From NCBI GenBank assembly GCA_016693855.1, contig GCA_016693855.1_4844.1: a stretch of 45,498 bases of DNA. The stretch is one strand, 5' to 3'. Origin of the DNA: a phage. Position numbers and translations under genes: made by a program. Position 1 is the first letter of the stretch; every line of letters starts with the position of its first letter. Shown piece after piece: positions 11,246-44,208 of the stretch. The notes under the pieces were generated by a model, which saw nothing but the letters and a program-made list of their open reading frames with translations, was not told the DNA's origin and made no database searches.

Positions 11246-13231
11246 ATGGCTACCACACCAACTAATAAACCAATTCCATCGGAAGATCCGCGCGACCTTA
11301 AGTTTAATGCCGGTAAGATTGACGAGGTAGTGACATCTGATGCGCACTACTATACCGATCGTTTCGGTAAGCGCCGCTGGACTATCGCAGGATTTCAGTA
11401 CACCGCAGAAGAAGCTATCCGTAATTATGGCTACATTACGATGGATAGCTTCGAAGATGGTGCAATACTGACTCTTTCCAATCAGACACTTCGTTATGAA
11501 GCGAACGGGGAATATTATCGCTGGGATGGGGAGTTTCCAAAAATAGTTCCAGCTGGTTCAACTCCAGATAGCACAGGTGAGGTTAAATTAGGGGCTTGGG
11601 TTAGCGTTGGCGATGCATCATTGCTAGCAAGGCTAAAAAGCAATAGTGCTGGTGATGGTGCTTCTCTTGTTACTTTTGAAAGCGGAAATTCTGTTGAAAG
11701 TCTTTCAGATAATGATGGCGCCAAGAACATAGGCAGCGGCGAAAGGAGTTTGCTTGCACGTAACAATGATATTAAGCATTCAGGAGACTTCTCTACTCTG
11801 CAAGCTGCGGTAGATGCATCTTTACCGAAAAATGACTTACTTATTTCCCCTGGTGAATATACTGAAAAAGTTACTATTGGTAACGCACAGTTAAAAGGCG
11901 TTGGCGGGGTCACAGTACTAAAAACTCCGGCAGACTTTACAAACACTGTTCAGGTTAATTTATCGACGCCTCATTGGCAATTCCGCCATAGTAGTGGTTT
12001 TGCTATAGATGGTTCTGGGACAACCGGGAGCGCAGGCATTAGTTTTGACCCGTCAGACCAATATTCTGGCCGACATAATTTTAGTGATTTATACATCCAC
12101 AACATCAACAAGGCCATTCAGAGGCCTTCCGGGAACATCGGCAATACATGGAGAAATATTGGGGTATCTACGTGTGATTGGGGGTATTACGCGATTAGCG
12201 GCTCAGAGATGCATTGCGGTGCTGATACCCTCTACAATATCCACTTCGACGGCATCTCCACCTATGCAGTCTACCTAAACGGCACTGTCGATAACGGTGG
12301 GGTGGGCGCATGGTGGCTTAAAGACTCCATTATTGAGGCTTCCGGAGGCGGCGGGATATACTTAAAAAGCAAATCTGGTGACTGCCCTACATCTCCATGC
12401 GGGGTGTCCAATATATGGATGGAAGCGGTTGCGACATCATCGGCTGTTAATGTAGACGGTGTGGCGCAAAAACCGCGAGTTCTCAAGTTGGTAGACACCG
12501 CGATATTCTTTGCTGAGTATTCGTATCTCAACAACATAGAGTTATCCAACTCCAACTTAGTAACTTATGGTTGCCGTTTCGACAACGCTGATGGTAATCA
12601 GGATATTGTTATTGATGAGCAGAGCACTATTGTAGCCCATGACGTGTATTTAAACGGCAGTTCCGGGAAGGATGTTATTGTAGAGTCTGTTGCATCGCAA
12701 TCTGCAACGATAGCTGCCACAAACTTATCTCTGAGGGGTAACTTAACAAGAGGGAGAGTATTTAACACCCCAACAGGGAATAAATTAATGAGTATCACAT
12801 TTGACTCAGGTAGCCACGAGTTTTCTGGTAGCGCTACAGTTAGCGGCTCAACTGCATCCGACGGGCTTCACGCCGCTACATGTACAGAATTCTCCTTCCC
12901 AGGCGCTGGTTTGTTCGAGATGGTAGCTTCAAGAACGACAATAACATCAGGCAGATGGTATGTTTGGGGCGTCAACTCTCGCCTCCAATCAGGAACAGCA
13001 GATGTGAGTATAACGTCAGGTATTACTATGGGTAGTGTTTACACAAAGACAGGGGAGTGGATTAGCACTTTCGGTGTAGGAAAGGCATCTGCCACTGGCA
13101 CTGTAGCGCTATACGTTTCCACAGGAGGAAGTTCAGGAGCTACGGTCAGATTCAGTGACTTTTTCATAGCGGAATTTACTACGCAAGCGCAAGCTATGTC
13201 TTTCGCCAATTCAAGGATGTCGTTATCATAA
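11246..13231 (+). CDS. tail fiber / tailspike protein
   Basis: 661 aa, last gene of the tail module before a strong terminator; Gly/Asn/Ser-rich repetitive middle portion compatible with a beta-helix; divergent C-terminus expected for a receptor-binding protein. Confidence 0.6.
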   Translation: MATTPTNKPIPSEDPRDLKFNAGKIDEVVTSDAHYYTDRFGKRRWTIAGFQYTAEEAIRNYGYITMDSFEDGAILTLSNQTLRYEANGEYYRWDGEFPKIVPAGSTPDSTGEVKLGAWVSVGDASLLARLKSNSAGDGASLVTFESGNSVESLSDNDGAKNIGSGERSLLARNNDIKHSGDFSTLQAAVDASLPKNDLLISPGEYTEKVTIGNAQLKGVGGVTVLKTPADFTNTVQVNLSTPHWQFRHSSGFAIDGSGTTGSAGISFDPSDQYSGRHNFSDLYIHNINKAIQRPSGNIGNTWRNIGVSTCDWGYYAISGSEMHCGADTLYNIHFDGISTYAVYLNGTVDNGGVGAWWLKDSIIEASGGGGIYLKSKSGDCPTSPCGVSNIWMEAVATSSAVNVDGVAQKPRVLKLVDTAIFFAEYSYLNNIELSNSNLVTYGCRFDNADGNQDIVIDEQSTIVAHDVYLNGSSGKDVIVESVASQSATIAATNLSLRGNLTRGRVFNTPTGNKLMSITFDSGSHEFSGSATVSGSTASDGLHAATCTEFSFPGAGLFEMVASRTTITSGRWYVWGVNSRLQSGTADVSITSGITMGSVYTKTGEWISTFGVGKASATGTVALYVSTGGSSGATVRFSDFFIAEFTTQAQAMSFANSRMSLS

Positions 13232-32606: not shown

Positions 32607-32891
32607 TTATTCTCCCAATGCCTTATTAACTGCTGCACGCGCATTATCCAGGGCACGACGCTTGCTTGATGTGGTCCAGACTTTGCCGGAGTGGTCGTCG
32701 TAGATTTCCAGTAGTTTCTGGAGTGCTGATAACAGGTCAGGAGATGCCGCAAGTAAAAACCCATTAGCATCTGCCGTCGATTCATCAAGCCATGATGTGA
32801 CAGTGCAAATGTGTCCATCCCTGTCACCTTCATAAACATTAAATGTCTCATCAAAAAACCACGGCCCCGGCGTACCTTTAAATTCTTCCAT
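32607..32891 (-). CDS. hypothetical protein, paralog of 44205-44531 (FKGTxGPW family)
   Basis: Start taken as ATG 32891 (GAGG RBS 8 nt upstream): MEEFKGTPGPW…LLAASPDLLSALQKLL…; shares N- and C-terminal motifs with the ORF at 44205-44531. Confidence 0.5.
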   Translation of the reverse strand: MEEFKGTPGPWFFDETFNVYEGDRDGHICTVTSWLDESTADANGFLLAASPDLLSALQKLLEIYDDHSGKVWTTSSKRRALDNARAAVNKALGE

Positions 32892-33051
32892 CACCAACCT
32901 CACTTAATATATTCAATAATTTCGCATTCACGCATCTGCACCAGACCAAATGGCGCAACAACCTTGCCGCACGGACGTCAAGGTTGAACACTCCGCAGCG
33001 TCCGTTTTCTTTGAATTTGACCATTACCATGACTTATCCCTCGCTAATAAC

Positions 33052-42444: not shown

Positions 42445-42474
42445 AAAGAAAAGCCCCGTGAAGGGGCTTTTTAT
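42445..42474. terminator. bidirectional intrinsic terminator
   Basis: aaaagaaAAGCCCCgtgaaGGGGCTTtttatt between convergent 41624-42442 (+) and 42477-43013 (-). Confidence 0.85.
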
Positions 42475-42476
42475 TG

Positions 42477-43013
42477 CTACAGGCGCATCGGCATAACAAC
42501 AATCTTCGCAGTCTCGCCAGATGGCGCACTAAGGCAGCAAACTGCGGCATTTGTATTTCCATTCAGTTCAAATTTGACACCACAGAATTTTGGATTAAAT
42601 AGCTTGGCGCACTTCTCAACATCAGCAAGGTATTTAGCGTTAAATCCGATTTGCTCAGTTGGCGAAGTCTGTTTTGGTATAACGCGATCAATATCAGGGA
42701 ATCGACCGTCAATAATGTTACAGATACCAGCACCTACCATTAACTCTGTATCATCATGGTACGTGACCATTTTTGTTTTGGTATCCAGCACCGCATAATC
42801 ATAGCGCTTAATTGGCGACTTACTGACTGATACAATGACGCTGTCTGTCAGTTTGTTGTCGTGCTTGCCACCAACAAACATCCTATGCCCATCAGTTGAC
42901 GCAACGCGACCATCTGGCATGAAGCAAATACCGTTCAGATAGTAACGCACATCATTCTTTGCCTGAAACATCAATGCGCCTTCGAGTAATAACTTGCTGA
43001 TTTTTAATTTCAT
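42477..43013 (-). CDS. truncated DNA polymerase III beta sliding-clamp (DnaN) homolog
   Basis: 178 aa from ATG 43013 (AAGGTG RBS). Ordered matches to E. coli DnaN as I recall it: FQAKNDVRYYLNG (DnaN ~150), ASTDGHRMF (~172), DGRFPDIDRVIPK (~240-253), IGFNAKYLADV (~325) and the C-terminal …IVVMPMRL (DnaN ends …YVVMPMRL). Domain I and the first half of domain III are absent. Confidence 0.7.
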   Translation of the reverse strand: MKLKISKLLLEGALMFQAKNDVRYYLNGICFMPDGRVASTDGHRMFVGGKHDNKLTDSVIVSVSKSPIKRYDYAVLDTKTKMVTYHDDTELMVGAGICNIIDGRFPDIDRVIPKQTSPTEQIGFNAKYLADVEKCAKLFNPKFCGVKFELNGNTNAAVCCLSAPSGETAKIVVMPMRL

Positions 43014-43186
43014 CACTTCACCTTAATCATATGTTGTTTTGCAACCTTGAGGCACTCTTCAAAAATGCCACCCTTCTTTGCGCTCTGATTGCGCTTGTAA
43101 TACTGAATTGCCGCATCAATTGCCATCTGGTCGATGTCCGTCAGCTTGGCGCGAAGTTGTTTTTCGATGAATTGTTCTGGTGTCAT
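43013..43186 (-). CDS. hypothetical small protein (57 aa)
   Basis: ATG 43186 with AAGGA RBS; stop overlaps the DnaN-like start (TGATG); below ORF-track size cutoff. Confidence 0.35.
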   Translation of the reverse strand: MTPEQFIEKQLRAKLTDIDQMAIDAAIQYYKRNQSAKKGGIFEECLKVAKQHMIKVK

Positions 43187-43398
43187 TGACTTATCCTTGT
43201 GTCGAATTGAGATTTGTAAAACAAATCAATACTTCCCAATGCTTTGTATTCAAATTTCCCATTCTCGCGGCAAACCCACTTCTCAAACCCATAATTGTCA
43301 TTATTTGCCGTCCATGTTGTCACAGAGAAAAAAACCACTAGCCTGGATTATTGCTCCATTACCATCCCTGTCACCGAACTTTATAATTTTGTAACGCA

Positions 43399-44208
43399 TC
43401 ACATCTTTTCCAGAATTGCCATAACCTCGTGAATATCAGCAACAGGAATCTGGATAAACTCCTCATCCTCTGCCACCACATGACCAGCAGGTAGAATCAC
43501 ATGGTCTGCTGGCTTCAATAACTCGATCAGGCGGTCTACTGGCTTAATCTTTTTCGACTTCAGCACTTTGGCTGTGACCTTGTCCTTGCCTTGTGCTTTG
43601 GCCTCTTCGACTGCCTCGTCGATAACTTTAACCGCATCATCGCCATGTTCACGCGTTACTGCTACGGCATTTGCATAGCTGATTTGTCCTGCACTGATGC
43701 GCGCTTTTACTTCTGCTGGCACATCACCCAGCGACAGGTGCATTTGCACGTCAGATACTGAGCGGCCTACCTTCTTGGCGATTTCTTCATTTGTCCAGCC
43801 AAATCCTTTCAATCGCGTGTAAGCCTTTGCACGCTCAAACGGGTCAAGCTGCTTGCCCTGACTGGATGACACCATGAAGGCGATTTTGTCCGCCTCGTCG
43901 CCAGTGAAATCCTTGCACTCAATGCGAACGATTGGTGCGCCGCGTTCAATGGCTCGTAGTGCACCAAGATAGCGATGCTGACCATCAAGAATGCGGATTC
44001 CTTTGTCGTCAGGGATAACTGTTAATGCTGGCAATGGCTGACCTGATTCCCAGCACTGAGCGAAATATTCAACGTGTTGCTCATCTGCTTCACGGATGTT
44101 ATATCCCGGCTCCAGATAGATTCGCTCCACTGGCACGAGATAGGTTTTGTTAACAGCAATACCGTTGCGCGTTTCTTTGTCTGAATAGATTTTGCTTAGT
44201 GTTTTCAT
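43399..44208 (-). CDS. ParB-like protein (ParB N-terminal nuclease-like domain + HTH)
   Basis: 269 aa; …IRILDGQHRYLGALRA… matches the ParB/Srx-fold arginine-containing box; …FGWTNEEIAKKVGRSVSDVQMHLSL… is HTH-like; no ParA partner in the window. Confidence 0.7.
   Translation of the reverse strand: MKTLSKIYSDKETRNGIAVNKTYLVPVERIYLEPGYNIREADEQHVEYFAQCWESGQPLPALTVIPDDKGIRILDGQHRYLGALRAIERGAPIVRIECKDFTGDEADKIAFMVSSSQGKQLDPFERAKAYTRLKGFGWTNEEIAKKVGRSVSDVQMHLSLGDVPAEVKARISAGQISYANAVAVTREHGDDAVKVIDEAVEEAKAQGKDKVTAKVLKSKKIKPVDRLIELLKPADHVILPAGHVVAEDEEFIQIPVADIHEVMAILEKM

Follow-up and report, generated by a model that had tools for sequence, protein, structure and literature searches.

Two short open reading frames beside a ParB-like gene of a Guernseyvirinae-like phage appear to be one 71-codon gene split by an extra T

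Introduction

Directly downstream of a ParB-like gene, on the minus strand of the phage DNA studied here, two short open reading frames (ORFs) follow each other and meet at a run of seven T residues (T7; A7 on the plus strand). The locus raises the question of whether these are two unrelated ORFs, one gene broken by mutation or by an error in the sequence, or one gene whose expression depends on slippage at the run. The window, i.e. the whole stretch of DNA that was analysed (45,498 nt), appears to be a complete circular phage genome and had no close match in the phage collection. The phage is a Guernseyvirinae-like siphophage with the relatives swi2, C1 and Sf11, which were the best matches (approx. 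90% identical over 60-68%) of the half that was searched (20500-45498).

Results

Layout of the locus

Coordinates of the two pieces and of their neighbours are collected in table 1. By minus-strand reading and the ORF list, ORF-A starts with an ATG at 43399-43397 and comprises 32 sense codons (MRYKIIKFGDRDGNGAIIQASGFFLCDNMDGK) followed by a TAA at 43303-43301, and the +1 frame relative to ORF-A is open from the tract to a TGA at 43185-43183 (...SVTTWTANNDNYGFEKWVCRENGKFEYKALGSIDLFYKSQFDTRISQ). The mechanical ORF-B of that list (43183-43338) has a GTG start and a length of 51 aa. A preliminary description of the window had noted the 32-codon ORF, the T7 run at its end and the continuing +1-frame ORF, and all three were confirmed in the sequence; the one correction is that ORF-A begins at 43399 and not at 43398. 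It had also placed them in a space between ParB and DnaN, which is imprecise: the ParB-like gene adjoins them on one side, on the other side the next gene is one of 57 aa, and the clamp-like gene of 179 aa, the DnaN of that description, comes only after it.

Table 1. Positions of the disrupted gene and its neighbours in the window.
Feature	Position	Strand	Remarks
ParB-like gene, 269 aa, upstream	43399..44208	−	phrog_1033, E=6.7e-91; Pfam HTH_ParB
Whole disrupted gene	43183..43399	−	217 nt; with T6, 216 nt (71 codons and stop)
5′ piece, ORF-A	43301..43399	−	24 native codons, 8 out-of-frame codons (LCDNMDGK) and TAA
Frameshift site	43328..43334		A7 on plus strand, T7 in gene sense; 1 base more than in relatives
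3′ piece, ORF-B frame	43183..43327	−	ancestral codons 25-71 and TGA; fully open; fits family consensus
Conserved 57-aa gene (phrog_4439), downstream	43013..43186	−	95% identical to swi2 gp74
179-aa clamp-like protein, last operon gene	42477..43016	−	phrog_3007, E=8.7e-61
Terminator-like hairpin with T-rich tail, operon end	42449..42471	−	

The ATG of the disrupted gene overlaps the stop codon of the ParB-like gene (ATGTGATG), which ends in ...AAG ATG TGA, and its TGA overlaps the ATG of the 57-aa gene (ATGA), which has a ribosome-binding site of its own (AAGGA, 7 nt upstream of the ATG). The order on the minus strand is a promoter-like site (44601-44573), a 114-aa gene, the ParB-like gene, the split gene, the 57-aa gene, the clamp-like gene and the terminator. 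The clamp-like protein matched Pfam DNA_pol3_beta_2 and _3 below threshold only; the label of phrog_3007 is 'RusA-like Holliday junction resolvase', and public annotations give the homologues conflicting names (beta clamp, DNA polymerase, RusA-like).

When the length of the tract was varied in silico, T6 and T9 fused both frames and T5, T7 and T8 did not. The product with T6 is a protein of 71 aa (MRYKIIKFGDRDGNGAIIQASGFFSVTTWTANNDNYGFEKWVCRENGKFEYKALGSIDLFYKSQFDTRISQ).

Homologues spanning both pieces

The virtual T6 fusion was compared with phage genomes by tblastn and matched phage IME207 over residues 1-71 in a single piece (E=3e-39, 94% identical), which puts the junction of the two pieces far beyond chance. 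The matching region is an annotated 71-aa coding sequence, gp50 (YP_009322763.1, 'hypothetical protein'), and lies in the same position, between a ParB-like gene and a 57-aa gene, with the same start and stop overlaps. In pairwise alignment the DNA was 96.7% identical over 300 nt with a single gap, at which IME207 has one base fewer in the T run; IME207 thus carries T6 and an intact ORF where the window carries T7 and a split one. A still closer counterpart was found in L021 (SRR27430042, 47.4 kb; 97.7% identical over 2.5 kb), where a T6 run lies in an uninterrupted ORF that encodes the identical 71-aa protein. The sole differences between this gene and the split gene are the T indel and one synonymous G/T change, the latter in the 3′ piece.

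More distant homologues also ran across the junction. Klebsiella phages Eowyn, KpGz_1, KpHz_2, Klyazma and RAH2 gave tblastn matches of 33-37% identity, and uninterrupted homologues were present in eight metagenomic contigs. The protein database yielded seven homologous clusters (70-72 aa) and then 21 by profile, all uninterrupted. An exhaustive profile search brought the family to 46 clusters at 50% identity, nearly all of them stand-alone proteins of 64-113 aa that cover the whole profile and all but two or three of them uninterrupted. Conserved motifs stand on both sides of the break (GDxxGxGA before it; TWT, WVCxExG and FY after it), and the joined pieces have every invariant residue of the family (G9 D10 G13 G15 ... 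T30 C43 E45 G47 F60 Y61 T67). The repaired ORF matched phrog_20151 (E=1.3e-05, residues 2-62). By full-length similarity it belongs to the family of IME207 gp50 and PHROG 20151, and the one trait of that family absent from the window is the single uninterrupted ORF, which the +1 nt frameshift at 43328-43334 interrupts, as in a disrupted allele.

Three peculiarities were noted among the remaining members. Jumbo phage Eowyn (L002) has two paralogues (98 and 102 aa), both of them extended at the C-terminus (BFVD A0A7R8R576 and A0A7R8MJS8). The 40-aa member P0063 ends just before the conserved WVC motif and may be another truncation or the end of a contig. In P0026 and P0045 (1177 and 973 aa) short parts of the profile were matched seven to nine times, probably driven by repeats.

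Both halves of the gene vary mainly at third codon positions. Across the aligned homologous genes, variable sites at codon positions 1/2/3 numbered 19/17/41 in total and followed the same pattern in each half (7/5/14 and 12/12/27), with a pN/pS of approximately 0.2-0.25 in each. The AlphaFold model of the 71-aa protein (pLDDT 85.8, pTM 0.73) is one small domain of strands β1-β5 and a C-terminal helix, with the break in the turn between β2 and β3.

That two unrelated short ORFs abut at a homopolymer by chance, one of the two readings offered in the preliminary description, finds nothing in its favour beyond the mechanical ORF list, and it is contradicted by the single-frame homologues that cover both pieces, by a model in which both pieces fold as one domain and by the want of a credible ribosome-binding site before the GTG of ORF-B; we regard it as refuted for practical purposes. 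As a candidate gene in its own right ORF-B was rejected, having no ribosome-binding site and encoding a product that would lack β1-β2; an exact look-up of the 51-aa protein found nothing on record. ORF-A, as 32 aa, had been called by a gene caller on a Logan contig identical to the window (L025, see below). The other reading, a gene of roughly 75 aa split at the homopolymer, stands with the length revised to 71 aa and with homologues in IME207, in the eight metagenomic contigs and in distant Klebsiella phages. The search it had proposed, for an uninterrupted homologue in related phages, succeeded with IME207 gp50, L021 and others. Its author would have given the reading up had no homologue spanned the pieces and had the tract been invariant; spanning homologues exist, and the tract is T6 in L021 as against T7 in the window. 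On the strength of these comparisons, both short ORFs are best described as parts of a single conserved accessory gene of phages, 71 codons long, that one extra T has split.

The tract among relatives

For a DNA alignment of nine sequences, the window and its relatives, DNA was fetched for all of the seven first clusters. Within this alignment the extra base was unique to the window, and the ORF was uninterrupted in all eight close relatives. The site reads T6 in IME207, L005, L021 and L033, in-frame GTTTTTTTC in L011, TTTCTTA in L006 and L008, and GCTTTTTTCC in L009, L012 and L013. An exact 36-mer containing T7 had no match in viral_contigs, and when the tract was allowed to vary in length, IME207 was the only match in viral_contigs and metagenome_contigs had none. 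Among near-identical genomes two alleles of the tract are represented, T6 in L021 and T7 in the window and in two contigs described below (L025 and L026); the gene differs between the alleles at one further position.

A diverged allele with its own +1 insertion was seen at 365-463 of L033, a metagenome contig of 807 nt (GCA_001292545.1, CYGL01012227.1). Compared with window positions 43320-43334 it keeps T6 and has CTCTT for CTCT 4 nt after the run; its ORF is 32 aa long (P0058, ...GFFSCDDMDGK) and its 3′ half is intact. This allele would fit recurrent loss of the gene, and the contig itself could contain an error.

Mutation or artefact

Could the phage truly have T6 and an intact gene, with the homopolymer over-called by one base during sequencing or assembly? 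Several features are in keeping with such an artefact. The break falls at one of only five runs of at least 7 bases in 45.5 kb, the rest of the gene is flawless and would encode a protein identical to that of the intact allele, and the source is an automated per-run assembly. The window was traced, by its exact ParB protein, to the Logan contig ERR4501691_13 (L025; 45,528 bp), to which it is 100% identical with an alignment that wraps round the window ends; the window is therefore that circular contig minus a 30-nt overlap (45,528 versus 45,498 bp).

A second contig, L026 (1,557 bp), belongs to another run (ERR4501695); it matches the window at 100% identity and likewise has T7. The same T7 was thus assembled from two runs, which argues against an over-call. 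A systematic homopolymer miscall could have been repeated in two runs of the same study, and the adjacent accession numbers ERR4501691 and ERR4501695 may not represent independent biological samples.

The rest of the genome was used as a control. At a minimum length of 5 bases the window contains 151 homopolymer runs, at 6 bases 43 and at 7 bases 5. Of the 88 annotated proteins of swi2, 69 match the window, and one other gene among these is split between two frames. Despite the 151 runs of at least 5 bases, none of the genes shared with swi2 has another frame break linked to a homopolymer, and each of the three remaining internal runs of 7 bases falls within an intact ORF and is in frame. A terminal overlap of exactly 30 nt would be expected from a de Bruijn assembly of short reads with k=31. 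Consensus errors at 7-mers are uncommon in de Bruijn short-read assemblies. Neither of the two signs by which an artefact would be recognized, a T7 that is not reproduced or further breaks at homopolymers, was found in the two runs and in the genes shared with swi2.

Since T7 recurs in the second run, no other shared gene is broken at a homopolymer and the other internal 7-base runs are in frame, a sequencing error is less likely than a mutation. The probable explanation, and the one that we favour, is a true change from T6 to T7 by replication slippage, of very recent date; an artefact is unlikely. The undamaged downstream half does not separate the readings, as it fits an artefact or a gene expressed by slippage as well as a very recent mutation.

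The other split gene among those shared with swi2 is a small gene at 32878-33030 on the minus strand, which lacks 13 nt relative to swi2 gp49 (47 aa; GCAAATCAAAATC in swi2). The deletion point, about 32977/32978, is not at a homopolymer. Owing to the deletion, the N-terminal half matches swi2 gp49 in one frame and the C-terminal half in another, which leaves a chimeric ORF of 50 aa; the 13 bases of swi2 gp49 are kept in most of approximately 150 related phage records.

Recoding and slippage

The remaining alternative is that the run is functional, either setting a low level of full-length protein through T7 or toggling the gene ON and OFF in the population through T6 and T7. In reporters, slippage of Escherichia coli RNA polymerase gave a rescue of about 5% at T7, rising to 10% at T8, and none below T7, so that T7 is the shortest T run with detectable slippage there (PMC6260861). 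The heptamer UUU_UUU_C also allows tRNA-Phe to re-pair in the +1 frame, and, as read from the sequence, the wild-type protein would be restored if this tRNA slipped by +1 from UUU to UUC; in the 0 frame a CUC codon follows. The occurrence of T6 and T7 alleles in near-identical phages, the undamaged 3′ half and the second, independent +1 insertion 4 nt away in L033 would likewise suit a functional site. A −1 shift on U_UUU_UUU was discarded as unproductive, since translation in that frame would meet a stop after two codons (GFFSL*).

Against this stand the comparisons with relatives and the features of the site. Programmed +1 frameshifting would be expected to show a conserved two-ORF layout and shift site, and neither is conserved here: with two or three exceptions the 46 clusters are uninterrupted proteins, and the sequence of the site varies, with TTTCTTA in two relatives and GCTTTTTTCC in three. 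No stimulatory element, whether SD-like or a downstream structure, was found either. Shuffled sequences fold as well as the 106 nt from the site downstream (z=+0.68). The T7 allele has no SD-like element of its own, its upstream sequence being that of the in-frame relatives, and the 0-frame codon in the A site is CUC, not a stop. The L033 insertion does not lie at any slippery site, so the same kind of rescue would be impossible there. Efficient programmed transcriptional slippage takes a conserved A/T run of approximately 9 nt or longer in most bacteria (PMC1088944, PMC6260861). It is also from about 9 nt that slippery runs are seen to be selected against or put to functional use (PMC1088944); the run in the window is 7 nt long and not conserved.

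Established slippage genes, such as Shigella mxiE (T9), Thermus dnaX (A9) and insertion sequence elements with A9, resemble the locus in having two overlapping ORFs at a homopolymer that are fused by loss or gain of a base in the mRNA (PMC1088944). They differ from it in that their runs measure approximately 9 nt and that run and two-ORF layout are conserved, whereas the window has 7 nt and a layout unique to the allele. A further comparison is with frameshift mutations that non-programmed slippage partly rescues, in the reporters mentioned above (PMC6260861) and, reportedly, in tssM of Citrobacter rodentium (PMC4256274): in such a case RNA polymerase could get past an accidental homopolymer indel at a low rate. 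By that analogy any rescue in the window would amount to a few percent at most, and accidental leakiness of the T7 allele at this level is conceivable.

A functional recoding or contingency switch is accordingly considered very improbable, and the suggestion that slippage at the tract is a purposeful mechanism of expression was abandoned, given a split that is not conserved, a variable site and no downstream structure. We take the locus to be a commonplace frameshifted allele of a hypothetical protein already catalogued in phages, and not a recoding device.

The slot after the ParB-like gene

The slot that follows the ParB-like gene (43187-43398 in the window; 2810-3838 in L016-L025) differs in content among phages with identical ParB. 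It is empty in L016 and holds an N6/N4 methyltransferase in L017, unrelated genes of 83-86 aa or 74 aa in L018, L019, L020, L022 and L023, a C5 methylase in L024 and the 71-aa gene in L021 and L025. Two other small genes occupy it in swi2. An apparently empty slot in L020 was examined as a possible further frameshift and discarded, the sequence being identical to the intact 74-aa gene of L022 and merely uncalled. In prophages of Klebsiella aerogenes the nin region harbours a member of the family, with the replication genes on one side and the Q antiterminator on the other. From these contents the position after the ParB-like gene reads as one of exchangeable cargo; judged by genomic position, the 71-codon gene looks like exchangeable, non-essential cargo, the loss of which is tolerated.

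All named hosts of family members are Klebsiella. Klebsiella is also the host of IME207, whereas the tailspike of the window resembles those of E. coli phages. Of this tailspike (11246-13231, plus strand) only the N-terminal approximately 144 aa match swi2, and the C-terminal 511 aa are approximately 92% identical to those of E. coli phages Golestan, LM33_P1 and fEg-Eco06, podoviruses included. The pattern suggests that a receptor-binding module has been exchanged and that the host is E. coli.

Discussion

The history that we propose for the locus begins with a T6 run that would have become T7 recently, through one-base slippage during replication. With the extra T the frame shifts after codon 24, and ribosomes add eight aberrant residues before stopping at the TAA. 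Going by the predicted structure, the resulting 32-aa product would keep only β1-β2 and be non-functional, making this a null or near-null allele. The lesion is likely to be very recent, because the 47 downstream codons carry no further damage and only the indel and one synonymous change separate the gene from the intact allele, and it would be tolerated because the gene appears to be dispensable cargo in a hypervariable slot. Some full-length protein, a few percent, might still leak through if RNA polymerase dropped one U at U7 or tRNA-Phe slipped +1; going by the literature only, either event would recreate the exact wild-type GFFSVTTWT.

As to what the protein does, we would guess, with low confidence, that it is adapted to Klebsiella and acts either as a host-specific accessory protein or in host takeover. 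A more speculative extension, to which we give little credence, is that the T-rich stretch of codons 22-26 may be a hotspot for repeated shut-off or for a slippage-dependent trickle of protein, and so a contingency locus of the phage. A Klebsiella-associated gene would then be switched off where its protein is useless or harmful, as it might be here, in a host that the tailspike indicates to be E. coli. The two +1 insertions 4 nt apart, in the window and in L033, each with an intact 3′ half, are compatible with such a locus and do not demonstrate it.

Under the favoured reading of a recent frameshift mutation, the region calls for a single annotation, that of a 71-codon gene of the IME207 gp50-like family which a frameshift has turned into a pseudogene or disrupted allele; it should be labelled neither as two tiny ORFs or intergenic space nor as a candidate for recoding. 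If a function is ever assigned to the gene, the natural null allele of this phage and the intact gene of the near-isogenic L021 would provide a convenient comparison.
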